From contig CAYTXV010000004.1 in NCBI GenBank assembly GCA_964441495.1, positions 210-64,209 of the forward strand: a stretch of 64,000 bases of DNA, read 5' to 3'. Source of the stretch: an uncultured Candidatus Saccharibacteria bacterium (GTDB lineage Bacteria; Patescibacteriota; Minisyncoccia; Phycocordibacterales; UBA9973). Shown piece after piece: positions 11,544-35,692 of this stretch. The first letter of the stretch is position 1, and each line of letters opens with the position of its first letter. The notes under the pieces were generated by a model. That model was not told where the DNA came from. It ran no database searches and was given only the letters and a program-made list of their open reading frames with translations. A program made the position numbers and the translations under genes.

Positions 11544-12617
11544 TTATTTGCTGATAAAGGTGATAACAACGCCAAGGATTGCTACAACGACACTCACGAC
11601 CCAGTAGCGCATGACGATCTTTTCGCGGGACCAACCGATCGCATGGAAGTGGTGATGGAGTGGTGCAACACGAAACACGCGCCGCTTACCACAGTATTTG
11701 TATGAAAAGATCTGGATAAGTGATGAAGCACTTGAAACCACAAGTGGAAGTGCAATGAGCGGCAAGAGGAGTACCGTGTCAGTGAGAAATGCGATAACGG
11801 TGAGCGCAACAAGGAGTCCCATCATCCCTGTCTCCCCCATATAAAACCGTGCAGGTGGGATGTTGAACCACAGAAACGCAAGTGTGGCACCTGCAATCAC
11901 TCCACAAAATGCTGCGATATCTATCTGGTTTTGTCCTGCAGCGATCACCGCATACGCTGCAAAGATGATCGCAAGTACTCCTCCTGCAAGTCCGTCCATG
12001 CCATCGATAACACCCCCCGAAAAGACTGCAATAAGGACAAACACAAATGTAGGTATAAACAGTGCACCAAGGAAGAGTTCGTGAGTACTAAACGGTATGG
12101 CGATCCCTGTCACACCAAGTTTGAAATAAAACCATGACGCGATTACGACGCCGACGATACCGATGAGGAGTATCTTGATATAGCGAAACCTGATCTCGGT
12201 ATCGCGCGCTCGCGTCACTCCAGTCCTGCCGCGAATCTCAAACCAGTCATCGAGTAGCCCAAGCATGCTTCCAAACAAGAGGCTTGCAAGTGGAATGAGC
12301 GTCTGGTTGCGACTATAAAAGTCGAGCTTTGCAGAAAGCTCTGATGGTACAAGTTGGGCCACCAGCCACATGAGACTGATAGTACCAAGGATTGCGATCC
12401 AGATGATGATACCGCCCACACGAGGCGTTGAGGTCTCTACAGCGGTGTTGTGGAGCTTGGCAAAGTCAGCGTTGGTGATCGTTTCCCCTTCTCGTCCACG
12501 CCTGCGCCAGAGTTTGTGCTTGTACATAAAGGTTGTCAGACGAGGCGTGATAGCGATCCCAAGCAAAAATGCGAGTGCTGTTGGAAGAAGGATTTTGATA
12601 ACGCTGAGGATTTGCAT
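11544..12617 (-). CDS. mraY: phospho-N-acetylmuramoyl-pentapeptide transferase
   Basis: Motifs GLLDDWFEI, DGMDGLAGG and VAPLHHHF. Confidence 0.95.
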   Translation of the reverse strand: MQILSVIKILLPTALAFLLGIAITPRLTTFMYKHKLWRRRGREGETITNADFAKLHNTAVETSTPRVGGIIIWIAILGTISLMWLVAQLVPSELSAKLDFYSRNQTLIPLASLLFGSMLGLLDDWFEIRGRTGVTRARDTEIRFRYIKILLIGIVGVVIASWFYFKLGVTGIAIPFSTHELFLGALFIPTFVFVLIAVFSGGVIDGMDGLAGGVLAIIFAAYAVIAAGQNQIDIAAFCGVIAGATLAFLWFNIPPARFYMGETGMMGLLVALTVIAFLTDTVLLLPLIALPLVVSSASSLIQIFSYKYCGKRRVFRVAPLHHHFHAIGWSREKIVMRYWVVSVVVAILGVVITFISK

Positions 12618-14811: not shown

Positions 14812-15168
14812 ATGAAAAGTTATTTTATTAAATTACTTACACGTTTGCTTGGAGGTAATTCATCAGAGTATAAGTTTTCGGTTGGACAAAAAATTGTCTT
14901 AAAAAGCAGAAGAATTTTTGGATATGGTATACGCCCTGAAGGAATAGTCTTGGGGTATACAGACGATGGAAATTATAAGATTTCTATGACACAGGATTTA
15001 ACGGGAGATTTCTTTGAATGGATGAAAACAGGAAAAGTTTCGGACGATGTAAGGAGAATTACACTCGAACAAAAACATTTGAAATCAAATATTGAAAATG
15101 ATTTCAAAAAAGCCTCTTCAAAAAGAGGTTTTTTTATTTCTTCTCTATTTTCTTTAACACAATATTGA
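14812..15168 (+). CDS. hypothetical protein
   Basis: AT-rich ORF behind a consensus promoter. Its 3' end reads through the shared terminator. No recognisable motif. Confidence 0.5.
   Translation: MKSYFIKLLTRLLGGNSSEYKFSVGQKIVLKSRRIFGYGIRPEGIVLGYTDDGNYKISMTQDLTGDFFEWMKTGKVSDDVRRITLEQKHLKSNIENDFKKASSKRGFFISSLFSLTQY
15105..15136. terminator. bidirectional intrinsic terminator
   Basis: AAAAAAGCCTCTT-CAAA-AAGAGGTTTTTTT lies between the convergent gene 14812..15168 and aspS. Confidence 0.75.
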
Positions 15169-16558
15169 GCTCGTCGAGCTGCTTCGCCGAGACTTCGCTC
15201 GGTGCATGCATCATCGGGTCCTTGCCTTCTCCAGTCTTGGGGAATGCCATGACTTCACGGATGTTGGGCTCGTCAAGGAGCAGCATCATGAGACGGTCAA
15301 ATCCCCACGCGATACCACCGTGTGGAGGGGTACCAGTCTTGAACGCGGTGAGCATGTGCGAGAAGTTTGCTTCGATGTCTTCCATACTGTGTCCGAGGAT
15401 TTCAAATACCTTTGCGAGCGCATCGTAGGTGTGGTTGCGGATAGAACCACCCCCGATCTCGTAGCCGTTGAGGACGATGTCGTACTGCGTGGTGAGGATT
15501 GAGCCGATGTCGCGCTTCTCCATGAGGTTGTCCATATGTTCAGGAGTCGGGTGTGAAAACGGGTTGTGTGTGTACGTCCATGCACCTGTTGCGTCAGGGT
15601 TGTCGGACTTCTCTGTTGCTTCAAAGAATGGGAAATCCACCACCCAACAAAATGCGAGGAGGTTTGGATCATTTTTGTCTTCACGGATGTCTGGTCGGTC
15701 GTTGCCATATTTCTCCATAGCTTCAGCGTATGAGATCCGTGGAAACGGTATTTGCTGGATCCGCTTCTCAGGGAAAAACTTCTCGACGATGTCGATGAGG
15801 AGCTTCTCATTGATGTTCATGACATCGTCTCGCTCGACGAAGCTCATCTCCATATCGAGCTGGGTGAACTCTGGCTGACGATCACCGCGTCCGTCTTCGT
15901 CACGCATACACTTGGCAAACTGGAAGTATCGCTCGATGCCTCCTGCCATGAGGAGTTGTTTGTACTGCTGTGGCGACTGCGGGAGCGCATAAAAGGTGCC
16001 TGGGTACAGTCGTGCTGGGACGATATAGTCACGCGCGCCTTCTGGTGTACTCTTGGTGAGGATTGGGGTTTCTACTTCGATGAACTTCTCGGCGTGGAGT
16101 GCGTTGCGTAGGTGCTGTACGACTGCATCACGCATGCGCATGTTGCGCTGCATACGAGCAGAGCGAAGGTCGAGGTAGCGGTGTGCGAGGCGAACTTCTT
16201 CGCCAACCTCTTTGGTGTCGACATTGATCTCAAACGGGAGCGGTTCAGCATAGTTCAAGATCTCGATTGCGGTGATCTCAAGCTCGATGTCGCCGTTTTG
16301 TTTATCAGCTTGCACGTTGCGCTCGGGGCGCTTGTTGACGATACCTTCAACTCGTACCACTGTTTCAGGGCGCGCAGTTTTGGCTATCTCGATCACTTCA
16401 GGACGGTTCGGGAGGACCACACCCTGGATGTACCCAGTCATGTCGCGGAAGTCAAAAAAGACCATTTTGCCCTGGTCACGGCGTACGTCGATCCAGCCCT
16501 TGATCGTCACTGTCTCCCCTGCCTTTGTGTTCAAATCCCCAATGTATGTTCGCTCCAT
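15134..16558 (-). CDS. aspS: aspartyl-tRNA synthetase, bacterial-type core lacking the GAD insertion
   Basis: OB-fold N-terminus (MERTYIGDL...), motif 2 region FRDEDGRGDRQPEFTQLDMEMSF, and motif 3 GGIAWGFDRL. Start trimmed to ATG 16558; the track ORF starts at 16693. Confidence 0.93.
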   Translation of the reverse strand: MERTYIGDLNTKAGETVTIKGWIDVRRDQGKMVFFDFRDMTGYIQGVVLPNRPEVIEIAKTARPETVVRVEGIVNKRPERNVQADKQNGDIELEITAIEILNYAEPLPFEINVDTKEVGEEVRLAHRYLDLRSARMQRNMRMRDAVVQHLRNALHAEKFIEVETPILTKSTPEGARDYIVPARLYPGTFYALPQSPQQYKQLLMAGGIERYFQFAKCMRDEDGRGDRQPEFTQLDMEMSFVERDDVMNINEKLLIDIVEKFFPEKRIQQIPFPRISYAEAMEKYGNDRPDIREDKNDPNLLAFCWVVDFPFFEATEKSDNPDATGAWTYTHNPFSHPTPEHMDNLMEKRDIGSILTTQYDIVLNGYEIGGGSIRNHTYDALAKVFEILGHSMEDIEANFSHMLTAFKTGTPPHGGIAWGFDRLMMLLLDEPNIREVMAFPKTGEGKDPMMHAPSEVSAKQLDELNIVLKKIEKK

Positions 16559-16608
16559 AGTCCCCTGATTATGCCATAAATGAGGCAATAAAAAAAGCCC
16601 GATGATTT

Positions 16609-17394
16609 TTAGGTAAGGCTTCGTATGGCCGCCTCTTGCATCACCGCGTGACTTGCTCCGTAAATAATAAAGATATTTTTTCCCTCCTTCCAATATTTTG
16701 CTATTTCAGTGAGAATATGTCTATCTCGAAAACCACTATTCCCAAACGCGGCAATACGATTGATCACCGTAGTATCTTTTCGTGGATCAACAATATTTCT
16801 AAAAAAATCGATGTTTGAAAGATTAAAGTCAGTTCCAAATAAAGATTTATGAATTTCTTTCATATGTGAAATTGAAAAATCAAAATCTGTCCAACCACTT
16901 GTTGCTTTATCAGCTTCCATTAACTCATTAGCGTACTCCTGGAAGTCTCTTTTTGTTGTCATATTACTCCACTGATACACGATTTGTGCAAAATCTTTAT
17001 AAATAATTTCTTCTCGTGTAAATATTTTTTCAAGCTCAGCAAACCTCTTTTTTTCTCTTGGTTCTGGAGATGAGCGCTCTACCTGCGCTTGATGCGCAAG
17101 ATAAGCAACGTACCCTGCTTCACCGCATTGTAGTATTGCCTCTTTTTCGGTTTTCATTATCGGCCAATTTCCTCCTTCGATAAGTGTTATACGTGGTTGT
17201 CCCGCTGTGTTTTTTAAAAACTCATTATAAAAATTTTTTATTTGCTCAAATTGAAGATCGTTTGGATCATACGAGTGTTTACTTCCAAAATAATAAATAC
17301 ATTTTCCATTTTTTTTGAAAGTATACACATACGGTACTTGGTGCTGACCAAGTTTACTATATTCTTCATATGTCATGAGCAGGTCTTTGTTCAT
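16609..17394 (-). CDS. TraB/GumN/Tiki-superfamily putative hydrolase
   Basis: The two GxxH motifs of the superfamily (YYFGSKHSYD and IFIIYGASHAV) plus a FRDRHIL (ERD..M-like) motif. AT-rich. Confidence 0.55.
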   Translation of the reverse strand: MNKDLLMTYEEYSKLGQHQVPYVYTFKKNGKCIYYFGSKHSYDPNDLQFEQIKNFYNEFLKNTAGQPRITLIEGGNWPIMKTEKEAILQCGEAGYVAYLAHQAQVERSSPEPREKKRFAELEKIFTREEIIYKDFAQIVYQWSNMTTKRDFQEYANELMEADKATSGWTDFDFSISHMKEIHKSLFGTDFNLSNIDFFRNIVDPRKDTTVINRIAAFGNSGFRDRHILTEIAKYWKEGKNIFIIYGASHAVMQEAAIRSLT

Positions 17395-17400
17395 AGGATC

Positions 17401-18291
17401 TTAGAAAAACAGTGCATGTGTGTATCCATTTGGGGTTCTAGTTTTAAATGATTCCTTGCGCTCGAGCTCAAATCCATAGTAGGGATCTTGATGCGCAATA
17501 TGGAGAAATTGCTTCTTAAAGTCGTTGTTGATACCTCCAATACTCATATAGGTAAACCCTTTTTCAAAAACTTGTCTTGCTTTCTCGTATGAGAGCTGGA
17601 GCCCGAGATTCGTGTATCCGCGGAGGCATTTATTGAACGCACTAATACATCCAGTAGCGGTCACACCTACTCCTATCGAATACCCGACAAGTTTTTCTCC
17701 GTCATACACAGCGATTCCAAAATATTGATCAAGTGTATACTCATTAAAAAATCTTGCGTCATTGTGCGTACGATCTGCTGCAAACGGTCTATCTGCACGA
17801 TCTTTGAGCCACTGTTCCCAAAATGCAGGTAGTTTTTCCAACGCTTCCTTGTCAAAATCTTTGAACATAAGATTTGCATTGCGTCTTACTGCTTGTCGAT
17901 AATGCTTTCGAATATTTTTGTCTTCGAGGTGTACATATTTAGATAGATCAACAATGACATCAACTCCTTCAATTTGGTTTTCTTTACGAGGATCCATAAA
18001 GAGCTCATTGTACGCAATAAATGGTGGATCAAATTTTTTCTTCAAGAAATCAACTACTTCTTCAGGAAATATTTCAAACAGTAATCTAATCTCATTATTC
18101 CCAAATTCCCGATCAATTTTGCGCACGACTATATAATCATTTTCTTGATACGAAACACACCACAAATCAAAACCGCGATTGTTGAAAAACGTATGAAGCA
18201 TATGTGGGGACGCAAAGAAACTCAAAGGAAGATTTTTCTTTTGTACGATATTAGCAATTTCTTGATGAGAAGAAAGTTTTAAGAGTTCCAT
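17401..18291 (-). CDS. DUF2156-like / tandem-GNAT putative aminoacyl-tRNA-dependent transferase
   Basis: About 300 aa, with architecture parallel to the clear DUF2156 protein at 26580..27509 (DKNIRKHYRQAVRR; YDGEKLVGYSIG; GINNDFKKQF). By-eye call. Confidence 0.45.
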   Translation of the reverse strand: MELLKLSSHQEIANIVQKKNLPLSFFASPHMLHTFFNNRGFDLWCVSYQENDYIVVRKIDREFGNNEIRLLFEIFPEEVVDFLKKKFDPPFIAYNELFMDPRKENQIEGVDVIVDLSKYVHLEDKNIRKHYRQAVRRNANLMFKDFDKEALEKLPAFWEQWLKDRADRPFAADRTHNDARFFNEYTLDQYFGIAVYDGEKLVGYSIGVGVTATGCISAFNKCLRGYTNLGLQLSYEKARQVFEKGFTYMSIGGINNDFKKQFLHIAHQDPYYGFELERKESFKTRTPNGYTHALFF

Positions 18292-18292
18292 A

Positions 18293-18916
18293 TTATTTTT
18301 TTATTGCGATTACTTTTATGTAATGCCAATGCTTAGTTTCATTTGTACCCTGCACAACAGAATACGCAAAATTGGCATCTTTTTCTGTTTCTTTTAGCAT
18401 TTTTATATCAAATCCTTTGAGCAGGTCTTCTATCTGTTCTTTTGTTAAGAAGGTTTTATTAGATTCTGGTTTGTTCCATTCATCGCTAGTTCCCAAAAAA
18501 TCCCCACAAAAAACTCCCCCTGATCTAAGAGATTTTCTTATATTTTCCATAACGGAATCGAATCGTTCTTTTGGAAGATGAAATAAAATACTCTGTGCAT
18601 TAACTAGTACAAAATGATTCTCTGGAAACGTGTACCCGCCAATCTTATCTTGAATCATTGTAAGCGAGGCATTATTTAGTTTGCTCGCATACTCGATAGA
18701 GGTAGGCGATGGATCGACAGCTGTTACCTCAAATCCGTTCTCTAGGAGAAATTTGGTATCTCTTAAATTACCAGCACCAATATCAAGCGCTTCACCCTTT
18801 TCTTTACAAAGCTTTGTTACGGCTATTTCTAAAGAACGTGAATGTTTATCACCTGCAATTTGCTCATAATACGGCTCCCAATCAAAATCGTCTTTATTTT
18901 CAAAAGGTTTTTCCAT
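18293..18916 (-). CDS. class I SAM-dependent methyltransferase (TehB-like)
   Basis: SAM motif I ALDIGAGNLRDTKFLLENGFEVTAVDPSP and post-I/II motifs. Its start is 2 nt after the trpS stop. Confidence 0.8.
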   Translation of the reverse strand: MEKPFENKDDFDWEPYYEQIAGDKHSRSLEIAVTKLCKEKGEALDIGAGNLRDTKFLLENGFEVTAVDPSPTSIEYASKLNNASLTMIQDKIGGYTFPENHFVLVNAQSILFHLPKERFDSVMENIRKSLRSGGVFCGDFLGTSDEWNKPESNKTFLTKEQIEDLLKGFDIKMLKETEKDANFAYSVVQGTNETKHWHYIKVIAIKK

Positions 18917-18918
18917 AC

Positions 18919-19899
18919 CTACTCCACTAGCCCCACCGCCTCGTACACATCCGTCAGCTTTTTCATCGCAACGTCATTTGCTTTCATGGCGCCTTGGAGG
19001 AGGATTTCTTCGACGAGCTTTGGGTTGTCCTCGTACTGTTTGCGGCGTGCGCGCATGGGCGTGACGAAGGAGATGATGTCCGCTATGAGCATTTTCTTGG
19101 CATCGCCATAGCCGAGGCCTTGGCGGTACTGTGCTCGTAGCTCTGGTGAATCGTTGAACAGTTTGTGGATCTGGTACAAGATCAAATCATCGGGATTCTT
19201 TTCTTCGTCAGGGCGACGTGAATCTGTCGGGATAGACATGACCGCCTTGGTGATTTCTTCGTCAGTGCCGAACAGTGGGATCGTGTTGTTGTAGCTCTTG
19301 GACATCTTTTGCCCGTCGGTGCCCGGGACTACTGCGACTGCCTCAACAACAAGCTCGTTGGGAAGTTTGAACAGCTCACTGTATTGATGGTTAAATTTGC
19401 CCGCGATATCACGCGCGTATTCGATGTGTTGCTTTTGATCTTTGCCTACAGGGACGACATCTGCGTCGTAGAGCAATATGTCAGATGCCATGAGTACTGG
19501 ATAGGTGAACAACCCCATCGATGGTTCGATGTTTTTGGCAACAGCGTCTTTGTATGCGTGCGCGCGCATCATAAACGGTACGGTCACGAGCGTATCAAAT
19601 ATCCAGGTCAGTTGTGTATGCGCAGGAACTGCAGATTGTTTGAACAGCACCACCTTTGCAGGATCGAGTCCGATCGCCAGGTAATCAAGCACGAGTTCGT
19701 GCGTAAATGTGCGCATAGTAGCTGCATCAGAGACACTGTTGAGTGCATGAAGGTCCGCGATAAAGATGTAGGACTCGTACAAATCTTGGAGATCCACAAG
19801 TTGTTTCATTGCTCCAAAGTAGTTGCCGATATGGGGCCGACCAGTTGGCTTGACGCCTGAGACAAGACGCTTCTTGGTAGTAGAAGTTGTGGAAGACAT
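18919..19899 (-). CDS. trpS: tryptophanyl-tRNA synthetase
   Basis: SGVKPTGRPHIGNYFGA (HIGH region) and KMSKS. Start trimmed to MSSTTS (19899); the track ORF starts at 20022. Confidence 0.93.
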   Translation of the reverse strand: MSSTTSTTKKRLVSGVKPTGRPHIGNYFGAMKQLVDLQDLYESYIFIADLHALNSVSDAATMRTFTHELVLDYLAIGLDPAKVVLFKQSAVPAHTQLTWIFDTLVTVPFMMRAHAYKDAVAKNIEPSMGLFTYPVLMASDILLYDADVVPVGKDQKQHIEYARDIAGKFNHQYSELFKLPNELVVEAVAVVPGTDGQKMSKSYNNTIPLFGTDEEITKAVMSIPTDSRRPDEEKNPDDLILYQIHKLFNDSPELRAQYRQGLGYGDAKKMLIADIISFVTPMRARRKQYEDNPKLVEEILLQGAMKANDVAMKKLTDVYEAVGLVE

Positions 19900-19982
19900 G
19901 GGGATATGATACCAAAAATAAGGCTCAAATGTCACGTTTGTGTGCATTTCGTCCGCACGTGCCGGAGTGCTACAATGACTCC

Positions 19983-21368
19983 ATGCAAAAGACTCCAAGT
20001 CTCGCCAACCTCCGTGTCCCACCGCACAACCTCGAAAGTGAGCAGGCAGTGCTCGGCGCGCTCATGCTCCGCCCTGCGGCGATACACGAGATAGTCGACC
20101 TCATCACTGCGGATATGTTCTATGCCAAAAAGCATGCGATTATCTTCAAGATGATCATGGAGCTCTCGATGAAAAACGAACCTATCGATGTCCTCTCTAT
20201 CTCAAACGCACTCAAAGAAAAGAAACAGCTCGCAGATGTCGGTGGCAACACATACCTCAACGAGCTCATGGGCAATGTCCCTTCTACCGTCAACATCCGT
20301 CACTACGCAGACATCGTGTACAAGAAATACATCCTCCGCGCGCTCATCGATGCATCTGAGTCTATCGCGACGCTTGCGTATGAAGAAAACGACATGCCCG
20401 CAACCGAGATCCTCGACACTGCTGAGAAAAGCATTTTCCGTATCTCTTCGGGTGTCCAGACCAAAAACGCATTTGTCTCTATCAAGCAATCCCTCATCGA
20501 AACCGTCGAGCAGATCGAGCACCTGCGCGAACACAAAGATGAGCTTCGCGGTGTACCGACAGGCTTCCCTGACCTTGATAACCTGCTCGCAGGACTTCAA
20601 CGATCTGATCTCATCATCTTGGCTGCAAGGCCGAGTATGGGTAAGACGACATTTGCGCTCGATATCGCGCGCAACGTTGCACTCTCTGGTGTACCGGTAG
20701 GTATATTCTCACTTGAAATGTCAGCGCAGCAGCTCGTACAGCGTATGCTCTCAGCAGAGAGTCGTGTCGATGCGTGGAGTATCCGCACTGGACACGGACT
20801 GTCTAACCAACACTTCACTACGCTCCAAGAAGCAGCGTCTCGCCTCCAGAAGGCTCCTATCTACATCGATGATCAAGCCGGCAACTCGATCGTCAAGATG
20901 CGCTCTGTTGCTCGTCGACTCAAGGCCGAGCACGGACTCGGACTCATCGTTGTCGACTACCTCCAGCTCATGCAGACAAGCAAAAACTATGACTCTATGG
21001 TCAACCAGGTGACCGAAATCTCTCGCTCACTCAAACAGCTTGCGCGTGAGCTCGATGTCCCCGTCCTTGCGCTCTCACAGCTCTCTCGTGCAGTTGAATC
21101 TCGTGGTGGCAAACCTCGTCTCTCGGACCTACGTGACTCGGGATCTATCGAGCAAGATGCGGACCTCGTGATATTTATCCATCGTGATGATCGCTACAAA
21201 GATGAAAAGGATGGTATCGCAGATATCCTCGTTGAGAAGCATCGTAACGGTGCGGTTGGTTCAGTCCAGCTCCTCTTTGATGGCAAGACCACATCGTTCC
21301 TCTCGATAGACAAAGCACACGCTGGTATGGAGCAACCTTCCAAAAAGGTCTCATTTGACGACTTCTAA
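19983..21368 (+). CDS. dnaB: replicative DNA helicase
   Basis: PHNLESEQAVLGALML N-terminus, Walker A ARPSMGKTTFAL, and the LSQLSR / DLRDSGSIEQDAD motifs. Start trimmed to ATG 19983. Confidence 0.95.
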   Translation: MQKTPSLANLRVPPHNLESEQAVLGALMLRPAAIHEIVDLITADMFYAKKHAIIFKMIMELSMKNEPIDVLSISNALKEKKQLADVGGNTYLNELMGNVPSTVNIRHYADIVYKKYILRALIDASESIATLAYEENDMPATEILDTAEKSIFRISSGVQTKNAFVSIKQSLIETVEQIEHLREHKDELRGVPTGFPDLDNLLAGLQRSDLIILAARPSMGKTTFALDIARNVALSGVPVGIFSLEMSAQQLVQRMLSAESRVDAWSIRTGHGLSNQHFTTLQEAASRLQKAPIYIDDQAGNSIVKMRSVARRLKAEHGLGLIVVDYLQLMQTSKNYDSMVNQVTEISRSLKQLARELDVPVLALSQLSRAVESRGGKPRLSDLRDSGSIEQDADLVIFIHRDDRYKDEKDGIADILVEKHRNGAVGSVQLLFDGKTTSFLSIDKAHAGMEQPSKKVSFDDF

Positions 21369-24732: not shown

Positions 24733-26427
24733 CTACATCGCTGGAAGCACCACCTTGAACGTCGATCCTTTGCCGAGACCTTCACTTTCGACGACGATAT
24801 CGCCTTTGTGTGCGAGTGCGATCTGTTTTGCGAGATAGAGCCCAAGCCCGCTTCCACCAGTATTCATCTTGCCTCCTTCACCTCGAGCAAACTTACCAAA
24901 GAGCTTTTCCTTGGTCTCAGGAGAGATACCGACACCGTTATCACTTACCGCAAATTCGATGGTATCGTCGAGGCGTTTGAGCGAGACCGTGATCGTACCT
25001 CCTGCCGGCGTGTACTTGATACTGTTGTCGGTGAGGTTGAGAAAAACCTGCTTGATCTTGGTCGCGTCGACATTTGCCACAAACTTTTGACCTTGTGGGA
25101 CATCGAGTTTGAACACGATGTTTTTGCTCTGCGCAGGGATCTGCATCTCGTTGTAGAGGCTCGTGACAAGCGGCGCGATATCGTTTGGAGAGATTTCATA
25201 CTTCATACCTCCCTGCTCGATCTTGGAGACGTTGAGGAGGTCTTCGACGATACTGACGAGCCCTTGGGCTGAGGTGTAGACACGCTTGATCGGTTCAGCT
25301 ATCTTGTCATCGAGTTTACCAAACGAGCCCTCGATGAGCATCGATGAGTACCCCTTGATCGCAGTGAGGGGCGTGCGGAGCTGGTGTGATGCGAGTGAGA
25401 GGAACTCTGTTTTGAGTTTGTCGACACTCTGAAGCTTCTCGTTTGCATGCTCAAGGTTTTCGTTGGATTGTTCAAGCTGGTCGGCGAGTTCTTGAAGTTG
25501 GTTTTTTTGTTGAATCTCAGCCCGTACTGAACGTACAAGAAAGGTTGCACTGATTGAGAAAAATACAAATGTGACAACGTTGAGCGTGAGATCGATAGGG
25601 TTTGTGTTGTAAAAAAATTTTGCACCGATCAATACTGCAATCAAAAACACAAGTGCTTGAGTTCCAAAAAGCTTGATGTTGAAGGTGTGGTACTTGACAG
25701 TAAGATATCCGAGAAGGATAAAAAAGATAAGAACCCCAACTGGACCCCATAAGTTAAACTCATAGACACCAGTGAGCTCTCCATAAAAGTTTGATACAAA
25801 GAACATGCCCAGCATTGCGACTACCCCTATACTAAACAACTTGATTTGTTTTTTTGTAGCAGCAACTTTTTCTTTGTGATGCGCAATGATACTGACTAGT
25901 GCAATCAAGCCTATTACAAATGCTTCAAAAGCATAAATAACACCCCATAACTTTCCAACAACACCTTCACAGTTCAAAACATCATACGAGACAATATTAT
26001 ATTTTGTAGGAAGCAAAAGTGCTGTTGTAGTCCACACACTAATAATAAGTATTTTTCCCCAGCGAGGAAGATCTTTTTGAAACACAAAGACATACGCAAG
26101 ATAGAGTGCGCTCAAAAAGAACCCGACTTCAAACAGCGCAGTAAGTTCCCATGTAAACATGACCGCGGTGTGATAGGCGGCCGTCCACTGCAAAAGTATA
26201 TTTATCACCCACAAAAAGAAAAATCCTGATGTTGCAAAAAGAAGTTTCGATTTGAGAGACCTCTTATCTTTCCGATAAATAAAGAATCCTATACAAAGTG
26301 ACAAAAACGCGATTGGGATATACGAATAGAAAAGAAGGTTTGGGGCTGCTGAAAAATCGATAAACCCCAAAAAAAATTGATGTACTTCGCCTCCACAAAA
26401 TAATTGGTTGTACTGAGAAAACAACAT
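24733..26427 (-). CDS. membrane sensor histidine kinase (polytopic N-terminal domain), orphan
   Basis: About 8 N-terminal TM helices, a coiled coil, H-box SHQLRTPLTAIKGY, and HATPase motifs DNGVGI and GGSGLGLYLAKQI. No adjacent response regulator. Confidence 0.9.
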   Translation of the reverse strand: MLFSQYNQLFCGGEVHQFFLGFIDFSAAPNLLFYSYIPIAFLSLCIGFFIYRKDKRSLKSKLLFATSGFFFLWVINILLQWTAAYHTAVMFTWELTALFEVGFFLSALYLAYVFVFQKDLPRWGKILIISVWTTTALLLPTKYNIVSYDVLNCEGVVGKLWGVIYAFEAFVIGLIALVSIIAHHKEKVAATKKQIKLFSIGVVAMLGMFFVSNFYGELTGVYEFNLWGPVGVLIFFILLGYLTVKYHTFNIKLFGTQALVFLIAVLIGAKFFYNTNPIDLTLNVVTFVFFSISATFLVRSVRAEIQQKNQLQELADQLEQSNENLEHANEKLQSVDKLKTEFLSLASHQLRTPLTAIKGYSSMLIEGSFGKLDDKIAEPIKRVYTSAQGLVSIVEDLLNVSKIEQGGMKYEISPNDIAPLVTSLYNEMQIPAQSKNIVFKLDVPQGQKFVANVDATKIKQVFLNLTDNSIKYTPAGGTITVSLKRLDDTIEFAVSDNGVGISPETKEKLFGKFARGEGGKMNTGGSGLGLYLAKQIALAHKGDIVVESEGLGKGSTFKVVLPAM

Positions 26428-26430
26428 ACG

Positions 26431-26556
26431 TTATTGTTGAGTAGATTCTTCTGTATTGATAATACTAAAATCTTTTTGCACGACAGTTTTGTAGTACGTA
26501 AGTACTATACTTACGAGCACAATAGCACATATGAAGAATTTGATTACAGGCTTCAC
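26431..26556 (-). CDS. possible 41-aa single-TM micro-protein (GTG start) abutting the kinase gene
   Basis: Hand translation gives (M)KPVIKFFICAIVLVSIVLTYYKTVVQKDFSIINTEESTQQ*. The stop is 3 nt before kinase ATG 26427. No SD and a non-ATG start. Confidence 0.25.
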   Translation of the reverse strand: MKPVIKFFICAIVLVSIVLTYYKTVVQKDFSIINTEESTQQ

Positions 26557-26579: not shown

Positions 26580-27509
26580 TTAGGACAATGTAACGGTTAC
26601 CTTTTTGAGGAGATAGAGTGGTCTATACTTCTCTTTTGCATATCTGAGACCCGAGATGCCGAGGTCTTGTTCAAAGTTTAAAAACTTTACATTTTTTTTA
26701 TGAAATACTCGACCCTCTTCCCAGATGAGTAGATCGTATACTCCAGGGTATTGTTGAACATCTGCTTTTGAAAAATGCGCTATCCCATACTGGTTATGTA
26801 CCTTTTCGTACATAGAAAAAGCAGCAAGTTTTTTATGTATATAGATAGAAATACAAACCAGTGAACGATCTTGAAGCCCAAGAAATCGACGGAATGCTTT
26901 GTATTCGTTGAGATCGTATGCGTGATGCGCGTGTTTATTGAGCGACCACTTATGGAACATTGAAAGATATTCTTTCTTATTTATCTTGTTTAGTGGTTGT
27001 ATTTTTAGCGTGTATTCAGGGAATACTGCAATTGTTTTACGCAGAGATTTGGATTTTGAGCTTTTGTGCCAGGTGTTCATTACCGCGAGATGTTCGCTAA
27101 GATGTATATAGTCAGCGTCGTCACGACTTGAGTCTATATCAAACGGTGAGTTTCTGAATTTAAAGTGAAGCGAAAGCTCCTCGGGTACAAGTTGGAGTAT
27201 ATTTTTCTTTAATTTTTTGTTCGAAAACTCAAGAAGCTCAAATGCTGTTGCTGAAACCTCGTGTTTGCCGATAAAGGATAGAAACGGTTCTCCGGTGATG
27301 TAATCAGAAAACTGTACTACAAGATTTTTGTTGAGCATGCTCACGCGAATCCTGTTTTTGGTATTCCATGACCATAAACTGACGAAGTTGAAGTCAGAGT
27401 ACGGCGGAAAGTCTTTGGTAATCCGTTCAATTTCTTTTTTGTCAGAAAGCTCAAGCTTTTTGAAGGTTGGAAATTTGGGAATCATATATGTGGTTCTATT
27501 ATACCACAA
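26580..27509 (-). CDS. free-standing DUF2156 (MprF C-terminal, aa-tRNA-dependent aminoacyltransferase fold) protein
   Basis: DUF2156 hallmarks FPPYSDFNFVSLWSWN and LNFEQDLGISGLRYAKEKYRP. About 300 aa with no TM segment. Confidence 0.75.
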   Translation of the reverse strand: MWYNRTTYMIPKFPTFKKLELSDKKEIERITKDFPPYSDFNFVSLWSWNTKNRIRVSMLNKNLVVQFSDYITGEPFLSFIGKHEVSATAFELLEFSNKKLKKNILQLVPEELSLHFKFRNSPFDIDSSRDDADYIHLSEHLAVMNTWHKSSKSKSLRKTIAVFPEYTLKIQPLNKINKKEYLSMFHKWSLNKHAHHAYDLNEYKAFRRFLGLQDRSLVCISIYIHKKLAAFSMYEKVHNQYGIAHFSKADVQQYPGVYDLLIWEEGRVFHKKNVKFLNFEQDLGISGLRYAKEKYRPLYLLKKVTVTLS

Positions 27510-27518
27510 AATATCTTT

Positions 27519-28433
27519 TTATGCAAGTAGTGCTGCCCCTGAGATCATAATCGCGATAGAAATCGCTTTTTGAAGGACATTTCTTCGAGAGATATCTTCG
27601 GTTAAGACGCGTGGGAAAAATATTGTAAAAACAATACCAAGTATAAACACGATTGCGGGTTGTACAACCTCAAGAAGCAAGACAGCTGATACTGGGACAA
27701 GGAGTACCGCGTAGTTCGCAAATAAGTTCCCTATAATCGTGGCTGTTTCTGAAAACAAACTAATACCAAGTACTTGCCTTCCATCAGATTTCATAATTTC
27801 AGAAAATCCTTTGCGGTATACAGGGACAAAGAAAATAATAAACAAACCCCCTATCCCAAGTCCTACATGTTCCCAAAATGATGAGACCCAGAAACCACTT
27901 TCTCTTCCAACAAATTTAAAGAGCACACTCCACAATGCGATTAGAAACGATGCGATGGTCATATTTCGAATCAGATTCCATCTAAATGTATATCGAGCAC
28001 TTGCATCGTTTCGCTTGAGCGAAAGAAGCAACCCTCCAATCAAGATAATCGCGCCCCCAATGAGTTGCTGAGAGCTTAACTGTTCACCTAACAAGATGTA
28101 CCCAAGTGCATATCCAAAGAAAGGTGCAGTTAGAAACCACGGTACAACAGAAGAGACGTCTTCGTCCGGGAGCGCTTTAAGGTAAAAAATAATCCACGAT
28201 ACATTACACAGGCCTGCAAGTAGGAGAACTCCGATTTCTTGGAGAGGAAGCATAAATGATCCTTTTGCAAAAAAGTATATCGCAAGTGCTCCTACAAATC
28301 CAAACATACTTGAAAATATCACAAGCGCACCGATTGGATGGCCGAATTTTTTGTTTCGCTCTACCAGGTAGTTATCAGCTATGTTGACAAATGACCAGAG
28401 AAGAACAGCCGAAAGAGTAAGTGTAATCCACAT
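27519..28433 (-). CDS. EamA/DMT-family permease
   Basis: 10 predicted TM helices arranged as two EamA-like halves. Confidence 0.8.
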   Translation of the reverse strand: MWITLTLSAVLLWSFVNIADNYLVERNKKFGHPIGALVIFSSMFGFVGALAIYFFAKGSFMLPLQEIGVLLLAGLCNVSWIIFYLKALPDEDVSSVVPWFLTAPFFGYALGYILLGEQLSSQQLIGGAIILIGGLLLSLKRNDASARYTFRWNLIRNMTIASFLIALWSVLFKFVGRESGFWVSSFWEHVGLGIGGLFIIFFVPVYRKGFSEIMKSDGRQVLGISLFSETATIIGNLFANYAVLLVPVSAVLLLEVVQPAIVFILGIVFTIFFPRVLTEDISRRNVLQKAISIAIMISGAALLA

Positions 28434-28437
28434 AATA

Positions 28438-28836
28438 TTAGTTGGTTATATCTTGTATTGGGTATCGTGTCCCACGCTTCACAAAATTTACCTCGATATC
28501 TGTAGCTTTAAAATTTTCTATAAAATATTGCTTGATAAAGTCTTGGTCCATACCGTTTTTGCAGGTGTAGACATCTGCGCTCACAAATTTCCTACCCACA
28601 AATGTGTGGACGCTTATGTGACTCTCCATGATAACGACAAATCCGCTCCATCCACCAGGATCCTTATCTCCGTTTCCTTCTGCATAGTAGACAACCGGGT
28701 CAGCGAGTTTGTGCATGCCGAGCTTTTCAGGAAGCTCCGTAAGTACATGAAGAACATGTTCTTTTGAGTTGAGAAGCTCCGGATCAGCTCCGTAACAATC
28801 CAACATCATATGCTCTCCAAAGGTAATTGTATTCAT
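28438..28836 (-). CDS. pyruvoyl-dependent S-adenosylmethionine decarboxylase family proenzyme (SpeH/SpeD-like)
   Basis: Self-processing signature VIMESHISVHTF (E-S cleavage site) and a downstream YTC motif. About 130 aa. Confidence 0.8.
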   Translation of the reverse strand: MNTITFGEHMMLDCYGADPELLNSKEHVLHVLTELPEKLGMHKLADPVVYYAEGNGDKDPGGWSGFVVIMESHISVHTFVGRKFVSADVYTCKNGMDQDFIKQYFIENFKATDIEVNFVKRGTRYPIQDITN

Positions 28837-28847
28837 ATCTGTGTAGT

Positions 28848-30305
28848 TTATTCCCTCGGTTTCAAAAGTGGAAACAGCTGCGTCTCACGGAGCGGTTTGT
28901 CGACGAGAAATGCAAAGAGTCGCTCGCCGAATCCAAAGCCACAGGTTGGTGGCATGCCGTGCTCGAGCATGTCGACGAATTCCCATTCAGGCATCATCGC
29001 CTCGTCATCGCCGCGCTCGATCATCTCTTGTTGGAGGAGAAATCGCCCACGTTGATCGATCGGATCATTGAGCTCAGAGAATCCGTTCCCTACTTCGCTT
29101 CCCGCAAGGAGTACCTGGAAGCGTTCGGTCACACGTGGATCATCGGCGCAGCTCTTTGCAAGCGGTGAGACGAGCTTGGGGACGCGCACGAGAAATGCGG
29201 GGCCTGAGATAGATTTGCGGCAGTATTTCCAGAGCGTGTCGGTGAGGCGCTCTTTGTTTGTACCAGTGTACTTCACGCCGAGTTCATCGAGCTTTGCTTG
29301 CATCTGGGCTTCATCTGCATCGAGCACGTTGATATCGGTTTGTGCTTCAATCTCCTTCACATAGTCGATGTGCTTCCACTCACTCGCAAGATCAAACGTG
29401 TGTCCGCGTGTGGTAAAGGTCGTGGTGCCAAACACTTCGAGCGCGATCTTTTTGTAAAGCGCTTCAACGAGCTGCATACCCATGCGGTAGTCCGCGTATG
29501 CCCAGTAGAACTCCATGTTGGTGAACTCCTGGAGGTGATCAGGACTTGAGCCTTCGTTGCGATACACACGCCCGATCTCAAATGTCTTGGGAAAGCCTGC
29601 TGCCATGAGACGCTTCTGCCAGAGCTCCCCGACAGAGATACGCATGAACACATCGAGTGCAAAGTCTTTGTGAAATGCTTTGAACGGGTTCGCTTCAGCA
29701 CCGCCGGTTGTGACTTCGAGTGTCGGCGTCTCGACTTCCATAAATCCATGCTCTTTCATGAAGGTTCGTGTCACTTCCCAAAACTTTGCTTTCTGCTCAA
29801 ACATCCGCCGAAGCTCAGGGTTGGTGAGGATGTCGAGGTATCGCTTGCGGTAGCGTTCGTCTTCATCAGTGAGGCCGTGCCATTTCTCAGGAAGCGGCAG
29901 GAGGCTCTTGGTAAGCATGGTCCAGCCAGACACAAACAATGCTTTTTCACCACGCTTTGTCGTGTATGCGATACCTGTTGCCTCGACGAAGTCTCCCACA
30001 TCGGTCGTGTCATTCCAGAGTTCATAGAGTGCCGCATCCATCTCATCAGACTTCAGAAACAGCTGCATGGTACCTGTACCGTCGTATATATCGGCAAAGG
30101 CAAGTCCGCCCTGCCCGCGCTTGCTCATGATACGTCCTGCGATGGTGCGTACATCTTTGCCTGCCTCATAGAGTGAGAACTGATCCGCAAACTGCTCTAT
30201 AGTGTCGGTGCGACTCGTATGTGCTGGGTACGGATTGATACCCTTTTCTTCCAAAATAGCCTTCTTGCGAAGTCGTTCCTCACGAAGCTCTGGGATAGAT
30301 GCCAT
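28848..30305 (-). CDS. lysS: lysyl-tRNA synthetase (class II)
   Basis: OB-fold N-domain and class II motifs (FMEVETP; VYRNEGSSPDHLQEFTNMEFY; GFGFGERL). Start trimmed to MASIPEL (30305). Confidence 0.95.
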   Translation of the reverse strand: MASIPELREERLRKKAILEEKGINPYPAHTSRTDTIEQFADQFSLYEAGKDVRTIAGRIMSKRGQGGLAFADIYDGTGTMQLFLKSDEMDAALYELWNDTTDVGDFVEATGIAYTTKRGEKALFVSGWTMLTKSLLPLPEKWHGLTDEDERYRKRYLDILTNPELRRMFEQKAKFWEVTRTFMKEHGFMEVETPTLEVTTGGAEANPFKAFHKDFALDVFMRISVGELWQKRLMAAGFPKTFEIGRVYRNEGSSPDHLQEFTNMEFYWAYADYRMGMQLVEALYKKIALEVFGTTTFTTRGHTFDLASEWKHIDYVKEIEAQTDINVLDADEAQMQAKLDELGVKYTGTNKERLTDTLWKYCRKSISGPAFLVRVPKLVSPLAKSCADDPRVTERFQVLLAGSEVGNGFSELNDPIDQRGRFLLQQEMIERGDDEAMMPEWEFVDMLEHGMPPTCGFGFGERLFAFLVDKPLRETQLFPLLKPRE

Positions 30306-30333
30306 ATAGGCACATGATAGCAAATTTGGGCAA

Positions 30334-30360
30334 TAAAAAAAGCCTGTTTTTCAGGCTTTA
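30334..30360 (-). terminator. intrinsic terminator of gene 30371..30925
   Basis: On the minus strand, AAAGCCTG-AAAAA-CAGGCTTT is followed by TTTTTATT. Confidence 0.75.
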
Positions 30361-30370
30361 CTTTAAATGC

Positions 30371-30925
30371 TTACATTTTCTGAAACGAGAGAAGATACTC
30401 AATTTTTCTTCCCGGAAAATCATTGTCATACTTACCTTCAATATAGCTATCAAATTTTTCAACTTCTATTCTTATACCATATACAGCTTCTCTGTCTTCT
30501 TCAGTGTTAATGTAAGGAACCACGGTAATGTTATCAGTATGTACGTAGAGCTCCCCTTTACCTCTAACCGTGTATTTCTTTCCTAGGTATTCAGGAATAT
30601 CGAAACTGAATACTCTTGAACCTAGTGGTAGTTGATTTGAATAGTATTTCAATGTAAGTATTGCACCGTGAGCACCGAGAAAAATAACTTTAGGTAATTT
30701 TTCTAAAAATTTTAAACATTCTTTTTTATGTTTAAGTTTTAGTACTTCCCAAAGCGTAGCTTTTACTACCTCCCCTGGTTGAATTTCGCCAGAGAAATTT
30801 TTAAAGTTTTCACTATTTATCTCGGCAGTAACAAACATGCCATGTGAATCAAGTAAGCTTTTAGAATCAAAATTTGATGGAACAGTAAGATCAAAACTTT
30901 TTAAAATTTTGAATTCATTTTTCAT
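30371..30925 (-). CDS. hypothetical protein (AT-rich islet with its own promoter and terminator)
   Basis: 184-aa ORF with no recognisable motif. Minus-strand promoter: TTGACA (30986-30981), 17 nt spacer, TAGTAT (30963-30958). Confidence 0.55.
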   Translation of the reverse strand: MKNEFKILKSFDLTVPSNFDSKSLLDSHGMFVTAEINSENFKNFSGEIQPGEVVKATLWEVLKLKHKKECLKFLEKLPKVIFLGAHGAILTLKYYSNQLPLGSRVFSFDIPEYLGKKYTVRGKGELYVHTDNITVVPYINTEEDREAVYGIRIEVEKFDSYIEGKYDNDFPGRKIEYLLSFQKM

Positions 30926-32229: not shown

Positions 32230-32616
32230 TTAAGTAAACAATTTTGTGATTATCGCATCTCTGACGTCTTGAAACAAAGCACTATCGATTTTGCGGATCC
32301 TTCGAGAAAGACGGCTAGTACTTATAAGGCGTACTTGTGACAAAATCAATGCAAATTTGATGTCGTCATGTGTGAAAGTAAAGTAGTATGGATTGTCTTT
32401 GATCTTGGTAGTCAGCGGAACTGCCAATACTATGCGACGATTAAATTTTTTGAGTACAAGTACTGGTCGTTCAAACTTTTCATTTTTACCATCTTCTTCA
32501 TCTCCGATGTTGAGCCCAAGTGAACACCACCAGATTTCTCGTTCATGAATAAACCCTAAAAACTCAGATAGCTGTATCTTTTTCTTTTGTATGTTCCATG
32601 TATCGAAATCTTTCAT
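32230..32616 (-). CDS. PemK/MazF-fold toxin-like protein
   Basis: REIWWCSLGLNIGDEEDGKNEKFERPVLVLKK...LAVPLTTK...LSQVRLISTSRL matches the about-130-aa MazF-like family. Start trimmed to MKDFDTWN (32616). Confidence 0.7.
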   Translation of the reverse strand: MKDFDTWNIQKKKIQLSEFLGFIHEREIWWCSLGLNIGDEEDGKNEKFERPVLVLKKFNRRIVLAVPLTTKIKDNPYYFTFTHDDIKFALILSQVRLISTSRLSRRIRKIDSALFQDVRDAIITKLFT

Positions 32617-32672
32617 AAAAAATACACAAACGCTGCGGCGCTTGTGCACTCTTTTTTAGTATTGCTAGGGTC

Positions 32673-35158: not shown

Positions 35159-35692
35159 ATGTCAAGCACTACACCCAAAAAGGGTGCATATTCCAAGAAA
35201 ATCCTCCGTCTCCTCGGGGCAAAACCGGCTGTTTCCGATGCGGAACTGGCCGATATGGTAGGGAGTGCATCTCGAGAGCGCTATGCCCTTGCCCGCTCAA
35301 TCCGCGGGCTCGTAGAGAGTGGTCTCGTCGAGACGCACGACTCTGGCCAGCAGACCTATGCGCGCCTCACCCGTGAAGGCAAGAAGCGTGCGCACTCTAT
35401 AGCACTCGATCACGAGGACACGCTCTACAACCCAGCATGGGATGGCAAATGGCGGGTCATCCTCCTGGACTTCCCCGAAGACCGCAAGACGGAGCGTGAC
35501 AGCTTCCGCTACCTCCTCAAAAAGGCAGGATTTGTCTGTATCAAAAACGCGACCTGGGTATCACCACAACCATTTGAGCACCTCTTTGCAAATATAAAAA
35601 AAGACCTCAATCTAACGACCCAGATCATGATTTTTGTGACTGACAACCTGGACACCGAAACTGAGCGAGAGTTTTTGCGGATGGTAAAGTAG
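35159..35692 (+). CDS. PaaX-like transcriptional regulator (wHTH plus Cas2-like ferredoxin-fold domain)
   Basis: N-terminal wHTH, then WDGKWRVILLDFPEDRKTERDSFRYLLKKAGFVCIKNATWVSP, typical of the PaaX family. Divergent from dnaK. Confidence 0.7.
   Translation: MSSTTPKKGAYSKKILRLLGAKPAVSDAELADMVGSASRERYALARSIRGLVESGLVETHDSGQQTYARLTREGKKRAHSIALDHEDTLYNPAWDGKWRVILLDFPEDRKTERDSFRYLLKKAGFVCIKNATWVSPQPFEHLFANIKKDLNLTTQIMIFVTDNLDTETEREFLRMVK

Follow-up and report, generated by a model that had tools for sequence, protein, structure and literature searches.

A candidate arginine-to-agmatine gene module with a free-standing DUF2156 transferase in Patescibacteria, adjoined by lysS in one lineage

The window analysed here, a stretch of 64,000 nucleotides from contig CAYTXV010000004.1 of an uncultured Candidatus Saccharibacteria bacterium, contains a compact minus-strand gene array in which lysS, encoding lysyl-tRNA synthetase (LysRS), is followed by genes for a SpeD-like pyruvoyl decarboxylase, an EamA/DMT permease and a free-standing DUF2156 transferase. 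The preferred interpretation, which is given an even chance of being correct, is that these genes represent a conserved arginine-to-agmatine (polyamine) module with a DUF2156 transferase, a permease and a membrane kinase, beside which lysS is found in one lineage. A LysRS-DUF2156 partnership, the central claim of the first-pass annotation of this locus, is not borne out by comparison with related genomes. In these, lysS is incidental: it is an upstream neighbour in the clade of the window and not a conserved member of the module.

The gene array and its conservation

The array and its upstream boundary region comprise the following elements, all on the minus strand.

30339..30359, minus strand: hairpin resembling a terminator, located between lysS and the hypothetical gene upstream of it (8-bp stem AAAGCCTG...CAGGCTTT followed by TTTTATT; pattern match only)
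28848..30305 (ATG start) or 28848..30323 (TTG start), minus strand: lysS, class II lysyl-tRNA synthetase (tRNA-synt_2, 1.3e-62, and OB anticodon domain)
28438..28836, minus strand: SpeD-like pyruvoyl proenzyme of the S-adenosylmethionine decarboxylase (AdoMetDC) family (PF02675, 7.3e-25)
27519..28433, minus strand: EamA/DMT permease with about 10 transmembrane (TM) segments (PF00892, 9.1e-12)
26580..27485, minus strand: free-standing, soluble DUF2156 tandem-GNAT transferase of 301 aa (PF09924, 5.3e-16)
26431..26556, minus strand: small conserved single-TM open reading frame (ORF) of 41 aa with a GTG start, unannotated and read from the sequence
24733..26427, minus strand: sensor histidine kinase of 564 aa with an eight-segment N-terminal membrane domain (HisKA, 1.2e-16; HATPase_c, 1.9e-27)

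The four minus-strand ORFs from lysS to the DUF2156 gene, as described in the first-pass annotation, are all present, and profile searches agree on every domain call. Of the short gaps reported between them, those of 11 nt (lysS to the SpeD-like gene) and 4 nt (SpeD-like gene to EamA) are correct, whereas the 9-nt gap between EamA and DUF2156 holds only for a TTG start at 27509 and becomes 33 nt with the ATG at 27485. The latter is taken as the start codon, since MIP(K/E)FP is the N-terminus of the database copy (P0001, 301 aa) as well as of every family member. The tight co-directional array also runs beyond the region first described: the small TM ORF follows DUF2156 after 23 nt, the histidine kinase gene follows after another 3 nt, and the stop codon of the latter abuts a convergent CysRS gene. 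Promoter-like sites in the array region show no excess over shuffled expectation, and the terminator-like hairpin alone is convincing; it likely marks the upstream boundary of the transcription unit.

To compare neighbourhoods, 80 loci with DUF2156 relatives were collected, one genome per species, and their flanks were annotated by phmmer, unbiased clustering and Pfam. In eight loci, from bins labelled Myxococcota, Polyangiales, delta proteobacterium, Bacteroidetes and Rhodocyclaceae, DUF2156 stands alone; the remaining 72 are of Patescibacteria or candidate phyla radiation (CPR) type. Partners within 3 kb of DUF2156 were counted in those 44 loci whose flanks both extend for at least 3 kb. EamA is found in 37 of these 44 loci and a histidine kinase in 40, and a kinase or one of its partner membrane proteins, Mem4 and Cys7 (described below), in 42. 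EamA is the immediate upstream neighbour in 29 loci and the immediate downstream neighbour in 16. The kinase is co-directional in 63 cases and divergent in four, and the SpeD-like gene occurs on either side. Because order and orientation vary while the partners stay together, the linkage appears to be functional rather than a matter of inertia. It is also present in loci whose labels point to different CPR classes, among them Woykebacteria, Amesbacteria and Doudnabacteria. The three accessory genes are linked far more strongly than chance would give, which does not hold for their adjacency to lysS, and the earlier view of these three genes as a functional unit finds support in a linkage that survives rearrangement. 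The conserved unit would be a five-gene Patescibacteria module of SpeD-like decarboxylase, EamA permease, DUF2156 transferase, small TM protein and 7TM-type kinase, a proposal given the same even chance as the interpretation to which it belongs. DUF2156 homologs from Bacteroidales and Clostridia have neighbourhoods with an SLC13 permease and a GNAT protein, without EamA, kinase or decarboxylase; in cultured organisms (Parabacteroides, Monoglobus and Fusobacterium) the homologs lie in neighbourhoods that do not resemble the CPR module and offer no clue to function.

True lysS adjoins the DUF2156 module in only three of the 72 Patescibacteria-type loci (L001-L003), which belong to one clade and encode DUF2156 proteins 61-71% identical to the window copy. 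In L013, L021, L051, L068 and L079 lysS is not at the module, although the synteny that runs from DnaJ through the module to the kinase and CysRS is kept. Other housekeeping genes abut or interrupt the module in other lineages, namely metK, CysRS and paralogs resembling Asp/AsnRS (class II D/K/N family), and the window itself has four aminoacyl-tRNA synthetase (aaRS) genes in about 15 kb. The LysRS-DUF2156 pairing is therefore a lineage-specific adjacency, and conservation of the module next to lysS across Patescibacteria was not found beyond these three loci.

According to the first-pass annotation, the housekeeping LysRS would feed Lys-tRNA to DUF2156 as an operonic version of LysX, yielding a lysylated envelope lipid or small molecule that is subsequently decarboxylated, modified and exported. 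Some features of the locus are in keeping with this. As lysS lies 11 nt upstream, is co-directional and has the terminator-like hairpin just before it, it is likely co-transcribed with the module in the window genome; DUF2156 is a member of PF09924, whose characterised relatives use aminoacyl-tRNA, often Lys; and the adjacency is kept in three related genomes, of which L003 shows the order lysS-EamA-DUF2156 even after loss of the SpeD-like gene. These features have to be set against the confinement of the adjacency to a single clade, the same synteny block without lysS elsewhere, the similar behaviour of other housekeeping genes and the density of aaRS genes in the window. Furthermore, lysS scores 481.8 with NCBIfam model PRK00484 (cutoff 468) and 393.5 with the LysX model, far under the cutoff of 742, and no LysRS-DUF2156 fusion is present. 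Among the AdoMetDC homologs characterised in PMC10407285, none accepts lysine, and on chemical grounds an esterified or amidated lysyl group is without the free carboxylate for a pyruvoyl decarboxylase. The tempting picture of a LysRS-DUF2156 operon as a split LysX is thus unsupported, and the mechanism built on it is regarded as very improbable.

The decarboxylase and the enzymes that follow it

The SpeD-like protein of the window carries the self-cleavage motif ESHISVHTF (...VVIMESHISVHTF...), and its processing Ser and catalytic His and Cys align with residues S63, H68 and C83 of Thermotoga maritima AdoMetDC (ES|H...H...C). It has HTFV where bona fide AdoMetDC has HTWP, and so is devoid of the Pro. 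According to PMC10407285, loss of the HTWP proline marks arginine-decarboxylase derivatives of AdoMetDC; in the same text the CPR homologs of SpeD include proven ornithine decarboxylases (tested enzymes from Kaiserbacteria and Peribacteria), and activity on arginine is proven in other phyla.

Arginine is suggested as the substrate by three features of the orthologous loci. The SpeD-like gene is replaced in L019, L032, L062, L063, L069 and L078 by a PdaD-type pyruvoyl-dependent arginine decarboxylase (PvlArgDC, PF01862), with matches of 1e-26 to 5e-33 in the four of these six loci that were scanned against Pfam. The two genes, present in 20 and 6 loci, respectively, never co-occur (L032 is without a SpeD-like match), and PvlArgDC abuts EamA in all five PvlArgDC loci that have EamA. 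Genes of the arginase family are part of the module or adjoin it in the DUF2156-centred loci L021, L051, L060, L049 and L015 and in two SpeD-centred loci. The latter belong to an independent sample obtained by scanning metagenome contigs, in which SpeD-like orthologs (61-69% identity to the window protein) are followed by SpeY, an enzyme of the deoxyhypusine synthase (DHS) family (1e-85 to 1e-98), in seven loci; in L103 the gene order is Cys7-EamA-SpeD-SpeY-arginase-histidine kinase. SpeY pathways are strictly agmatine-dependent according to PMC13625781: two agmatines, formed by an arginine decarboxylase, are condensed, after which a ureohydrolase releases homospermidine. The association with SpeY, ureohydrolase and PvlArgDC is drawn from the loci of orthologs and not from the window locus itself. 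Because of the PdaD-type displacement, the arginase-family neighbours and the SpeY clusters, the window SpeD-like protein is most likely an arginine decarboxylase that makes agmatine. The earlier suggestion of an AdoMetDC homolog serving as an amino-acid decarboxylase rather than a decarboxylase of S-adenosylmethionine (SAM) is thus likely to hold, on the strength of displacement and neighbourhoods, and lysine gives way to arginine as the probable substrate.

One variant, L089:4136-7381, is a module without DUF2156 or EamA and consists of a SpeD-like gene, a 52-aa small TM ORF, a gene for a SET-domain protein, a 7TM kinase gene and a convergent gene for a single-domain response regulator. As L089 keeps decarboxylase and kinase in the absence of DUF2156, the link between these two appears to be independent of the transferase.

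The SpeD-like gene abuts DUF2156 with no EamA nearby in L026, L044, L047, L050 and L068. In the SpeD-centred sample, the slot after the decarboxylase and permease genes is occupied by DUF2156 (13 loci), a PurD-like ATP-grasp ligase (8 loci) or SpeY (7 loci), never together, and further lineage-specific insertions are amine-tailoring enzymes, i.e., SET, class I methyltransferases, formyltransferase-like proteins and GNAT proteins. Since its slot is filled elsewhere by SpeY or the ATP-grasp ligase, DUF2156 is probably one of several alternative enzymes that target the amino group of agmatine or of a polyamine made from it. Replacement by an ATP-grasp enzyme is in keeping with amide-bond formation and tips the balance mildly towards aminoacyl transfer. 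A connection of DUF2156 with the agmatine/polyamine pathway seems not to have been described before; a literature search found no paper that ties DUF2156 to polyamines or describes MprF/DUF2156 in Patescibacteria.

The PurD-like protein is a divergent ATP-grasp enzyme of about 447 aa (GARS_A at about 1e-12, and GARS_C), found at the DUF2156 position beside the SpeD-like and 7TM kinase genes (L100:7321-8673, L126:4395-5720, L127:3596-4945, L130:3996-5351, L139:1379-2722 and L146:6384-7700). It could serve as an amine-carboxylate ligase with agmatine or a polyamine as substrate. In L088:6387-7319 the slot between the SpeD-like and HisKA_7TM kinase genes holds a 310-aa protein with N-terminal TM segments, a soluble C-terminal domain and no Pfam match.

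The DUF2156 transferase and its membrane partners

The identity of the DUF2156 protein is confirmed by its match to PF09924 (59 bits, cutoff 27.5, profile positions 8-294 of 298). The 301-aa protein has no TM or hydrophobic segment and no membrane anchor, in agreement with the earlier statement that the MprF flippase domain is absent. The predicted model (AlphaFold, pLDDT 93.9) has a tandem GNAT fold. In a Foldseek comparison its closest neighbour is 2HQY (TM-score 0.80, E 1.8e-21), followed by the MprF C-domains (about 0.64, probability 1.0, about 10% identity), FemX (0.60) and Sba18/Sbb17 (0.53-0.57); the neighbours after 2HQY are thus aminoacyl-tRNA transferases, which come ahead of acyl-CoA tandem GNATs. 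The family profile has 2HQY (BT_3689) as its sole match in the PDB (2.9e-27, residues 8-295, 24% identity), and no chain of MprF or FemX is recovered with it, even at E<=10.

The family comprises 1016 representatives at 50% identity (E<=1e-30), nearly all free-standing and about 300 aa long. No Rosetta-stone fusions occur among the 150 best representatives; two of these (382 and 389 aa) carry about 80 additional residues without a match, far fewer than a flippase domain needs, and the rest measure 207-342 aa. Conservation reaches 99% for R200 and 94% for K184, and the C-terminal motif N-x-E-(Q/E)-D-L-G-I-x-G-L-R-x-x-K is common to 2HQY. At the GNAT I/II junction a basic helix, residues 143-154 (SKSKSLRKTIAV), has K/R in 46-63% of sequences at six positions and may be a counterpart of the helix that binds the tRNA acceptor stem in aminoacyl-tRNA transferases (PMC6103681). 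Net charge and isoelectric point are uninformative with regard to tRNA versus polyamine binding (family median pI 7.1, range 5.0-9.7). As putative donor, aminoacyl-tRNA is slightly favoured over acetyl- or acyl-CoA.

The transfer of an amino acid from aminoacyl-tRNA to a lipid, as first proposed, is an extrapolation, MprF being a distant relative and BT_3689/2HQY a much closer one. A rival explanation is a split MprF-like system, with DUF2156 aminoacylating a membrane lipid from some aminoacyl-tRNA, EamA acting as the flippase, the kinase sensing membrane charge or cationic peptides, and the decarboxylase as a passenger. The Pfam membership, the fold shared with the MprF C-domains, the basic junction helix and the multi-TM partners that are always adjacent are consistent with such a system, as is an LCAT-family lipase gene upstream in one locus. 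This gene encodes a lipase/acyltransferase of 1018 aa (LCAT family, PF02450) and immediately precedes the DUF2156 module (L085:3448-6504, a JGI contig, with a near-identical Logan contig, L086); it is the sole lipid-related neighbour seen. In contrast, the failure of the family profile to match any MprF structure, the identity of about 10% and the missing membrane anchor argue against a lipid substrate. EamA tracks the arginine decarboxylase and is found equally with the SpeY and ATP-grasp variants, with nothing lipid-related, and a slot common to SpeY and ATP-grasp enzymes points to a soluble amine. An MprF-like system is considered unlikely.

The closest solved relative gives rise to another explanation. 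2HQY has been reported with acetyl-CoA in the active site, and deletion of the Helicobacter pylori homolog HPB8_1270 lowers the acetylation of four RNase J lysines (PMC10700544). DUF2156 could be an acetyl-CoA-dependent protein lysine acetyltransferase, as proposed for HPB8_1270, that modifies cellular proteins or the adjacent kinase, together with SET and PrmA-like methyltransferases in some lineages, and the polyamine genes would be separate. The genes for SET-domain and PrmA-like proteins do recur in the module. Yet the case from H. pylori is a genetic one and incomplete, no in vitro activity having been reported, and sequence identity to 2HQY is only 24%. Protein acetylation also leaves unexplained the coupling to arginine decarboxylases of two folds and the slot shared with SpeY and the ATP-grasp ligase, so that this explanation is judged quite unlikely.

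The permease matches PF00892 in its first repeat and NCBIfam DMT models over residues 45-301, has 9-10 hydrophobic segments, and shows no meaningful match to solved structures. EamA abuts decarboxylases of either fold and occurs with every second-step variant; because it accompanies all variants, it appears to be tied to the arginine/agmatine step and not to the product of DUF2156, and would be a transporter for arginine, agmatine or polyamine. A multi-TM protein that measures about 200 aa and is matched by no Pfam family recurs beside the SpeD-like gene or DUF2156, in some loci without EamA (L116:911-1486, L131:2857-3447, L144:1298-1906, L032:9212-9874, L049:1865-2488 and L070:9396-10001), and may be an alternative transporter.

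Homologs of the small TM ORF, with the motif YY(K/H/Q)T(I/V)I(Q/H)(K/Q)DF, are found in L001, L002, L003, L010, L022, L029 and L089, and the ORF was detected in 15 SpeD-centred loci. It resembles the N-terminal TM part of the Cys7 proteins, TM plus Cys-rich proteins of 130 aa that precede the kinase in other lineages; the resemblance is visible in the motif, although the comparison with the Cys7 hidden Markov model is not significant. The window kinase contains HisKA and HATPase_c domains preceded by eight N-terminal hydrophobic segments. PF16927 (HisKA_7TM) was not detected in it, but its N-terminal 320 aa are homologous to the kinases of L088 (1e-16) and L089 (8e-33), of which the former matches PF16927 with 49 bits. 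It may be a divergent kinase of the HisKA_7TM type. The window array has no response regulator, the only one in the window being 22 kb away, and across the loci an adjacent response regulator occurs in only nine cases.

Two further, novel membrane proteins, the multi-TM protein Mem4a of about 275 aa and the smaller Mem4b of about 100 aa, occur as a fusion of about 390 aa in some cases and always lie between DUF2156 and a short kinase with DHp and CA domains only (L020, L034, L040, L062 and about 35 other loci, e.g., L040:10944-11771 and 11734-12060). Neither Mem4 nor Cys7 has a Pfam match. The arrangement of Mem4 with a short kinase suggests a sensor split from its kinase; Mem4a/b as a split kinase N-terminal domain was rejected, as hmmsearch found no similarity.

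Several observations weigh against the arginine-to-agmatine interpretation. What the analysis establishes are domain identities, a predicted fold, neighbourhood conservation and non-homologous displacements; the functional steps rest on guilt by association. About half of the SpeD-like proteins linked to the module have the diagnostic Pro, its position varying between P, A and V; the window protein scores 74.5 with the AdoMetDC equivalog model TIGR03330, about 1 bit short of the cutoff of 75.65; and some modules contain SAM synthetase and SAM-dependent methyltransferases. The SpeD-like protein may thus still be a bona fide AdoMetDC. Pairs of SpeY and arginase-family genes flank the DUF2156 module in L051, L060 and L013, so that strict mutual exclusivity of DUF2156 and SpeY, once considered, was withdrawn, and SET co-occurs with DUF2156 in L013 and L038. 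The acetyl-CoA reported in 2HQY weakens the preference for aminoacyl-tRNA. A decarboxylase lies within 3 kb in only 17 of the 44 full-flank DUF2156 loci (~39%), and the core function of DUF2156 may not require one. Many metagenome loci are short, which makes absences weak evidence, the loci are not phylogenetically independent, and the linkage of the kinase could in part be conserved synteny in Paceibacteria.

Taken further, this variable composition, the non-independence of the samples and the conserved DnaJ-to-CysRS macro-synteny around the locus would be compatible with there being no shared pathway at all, but only independent functions held together by inertia of gene order in small, gene-dense Paceibacteria genomes. 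Such inertia does not readily account for adjacencies that outlast changes of order and strand, with EamA and the SpeD-like gene on either side and a divergent kinase in four loci, nor for linkage across loci labelled as different CPR classes. The non-homologous displacement of the SpeD-like gene by PvlArgDC at the same position is especially hard to explain in this way, and independent functions are thought improbable.

Genomic setting, related systems and a possible pathway

The observation that the accessory genes are AT-richer than lysS is correct (GC content 0.38-0.42 versus 0.52), but this is not peculiar to them, as 18 of the 70 ORFs in the window fall below 0.43. A gene-by-gene mosaic runs across the window, with values of 0.48-0.56 for housekeeping genes and 0.30-0.42 for membrane and poorly conserved genes, and the kinase gene changes from 0.38 in its N-terminal membrane half to 0.51 in its C-terminal catalytic half. 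Because the mosaic is genome-wide and exists even inside one gene, AT-richness is not evidence of foreign origin; horizontal transfer as the source of the accessory genes was rejected on this ground and because the module lies in conserved synteny.

A second tight co-directional array in the window, 15134..20022 on the minus strand, likewise has accessory genes wedged between aaRS genes, and its middle genes are AT-rich (GC 0.37).

18919..20022, minus strand: Trp/TyrRS
18293..18916, minus strand: class I methyltransferase
17401..18291, minus strand: weak GNAT-like protein of 296 aa (Acetyltransf_6, E 0.01; hhalign to the DUF2156 family, E 1e-3, GNAT-II half only)
16609..17394, minus strand: unknown protein of 261 aa
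15134..16693, minus strand: Asp/AsnRS

Upstream of lysS, a 184-aa ORF (30371..30925, minus strand; GC 0.32) without Pfam or NCBIfam match separates it from dnaJ. In the grpE-dnaK-dnaJ region, a PemK/MazF-like toxin gene (32230..32649, minus strand; PF02452, 1.1e-12) is inserted between dnaK and dnaJ, and a gene for a 177-aa protein with a PaaX central Cas2-like domain (35159..35692, plus strand; PF20803, 1.9e-20) lies between dnaK and grpE.

Among known systems, the window locus appears most like the published polyamine clusters built on a SpeD-derived arginine decarboxylase (ADC) and SpeY. The SpeDA/SpeY/ureohydrolase homospermidine clusters (Li et al., PMC10407285, PMC13625781) contain an AdoMetDC-derived pyruvoyl decarboxylase, and orthologs of the window decarboxylase cluster with SpeY and arginase-family genes; the window has DUF2156 instead of SpeY and ureohydrolase, and EamA, the small TM protein and the 7TM kinase are absent from the clusters described in the accessible parts of these reports. 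With MprF-type aminoacyl-phosphatidylglycerol synthases, including LysX, the window transferase shares the PF09924 domain and the predicted tandem-GNAT fold, and its basic helix at the GNAT junction may correspond to theirs. Unlike them, it has no fused flippase or LysRS, about 10% identity and no profile match to MprF structures, its LysRS adjacency is unconserved, and its module partners are polyamine genes and not lipid genes. The window locus is not an MprF or LysX system. BT_3689 (2HQY) and HPB8_1270 are alike in length, architecture, profile similarity, fold and C-terminal motif, but differ in sequence (24% identity) and in their unrelated neighbourhoods in Bacteroidales and Clostridia.

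The valanimycin cluster, in which VlmA is paired with a dedicated aaRS gene, provides a further parallel. VlmA (with the SerRS VlmL), Sba18/Sbb17, PacB and DhpH/K are GNAT-type enzymes that place an amino acid from aminoacyl-tRNA onto a small-molecule amine or hydroxyl group (PMC6103681). These belong to actinomycete antibiotic clusters, whereas the aaRS of the window is a housekeeping enzyme with unconserved adjacency and the donor of its DUF2156 protein is putative. At the level of architecture, the combinations of an amino-acid decarboxylase with a transporter and of an N-acyltransferase with an exporter are comparable to the decarboxylase/antiporter pair AdiA/AdiC and to BltD/Blt and SpeG, which are polyamine acetyltransferase/exporter pairs. 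The families in the window differ throughout (pyruvoyl SpeD fold, DMT permease, tandem GNAT).

A pathway can be proposed on these grounds. The SpeD-like pyruvoyl enzyme would convert L-arginine to agmatine, and EamA, in view of its constant pairing with the decarboxylase, would move arginine, agmatine or a polyamine across the membrane. DUF2156 would then place an acyl or aminoacyl group, the latter from aminoacyl-tRNA as the slightly favoured donor over acetyl- or acyl-CoA, onto an amine of agmatine or of a polyamine made from it, as another use of agmatine than the SpeY/ureohydrolase route to homospermidine in sister lineages. The small TM protein and the membrane kinase, judged by their neighbourhood only, may sense or regulate the pathway. 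The modification and transport of a small molecule, as suggested in the first-pass annotation, remains plausible; the part driven by LysRS is not supported.

A more speculative version, regarded as rather improbable, is that the module forms a self-contained CPR chemical signalling circuit, in which an N-aminoacyl- or N-acyl-agmatine is made, released by the DMT permease and detected by the 7TM kinase with its small TM partner, and in which the swaps for ATP-grasp, SET, methyltransferase and formyltransferase-like enzymes diversify the signal. The synthase/receptor-kinase pairs LuxM-LuxN and CqsA-CqsS have an analogous architecture. If such a circuit existed and used an aminoacyl-tRNA donor, it would provide the first case in which a polyamine-type amine is aminoacylated in a tRNA-dependent manner.

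Patescibacteria/CPR are abundant, mostly uncultured and metabolically minimal, and conserved multi-gene modules are rare clues to their lifestyle. To the published clusters of SpeD-derived decarboxylases and SpeY, the arginine-to-agmatine interpretation would add a DMT permease, a small TM protein and a 7TM kinase as three previously unreported partners, and it suggests membrane-level sensing or regulation of polyamine metabolism in the CPR. The interpretation also gives a probable pathway context, from arginine to agmatine or polyamine, to a large free-standing DUF2156 family with more than 1,000 representatives, in a domain otherwise known almost only from MprF-type lipid aminoacylation. If agmatine or a polyamine is indeed modified, this would represent a new class of acceptor for DUF2156 chemistry and, if aminoacyl-tRNA is used, a new non-ribosomal use of aminoacyl-tRNA.

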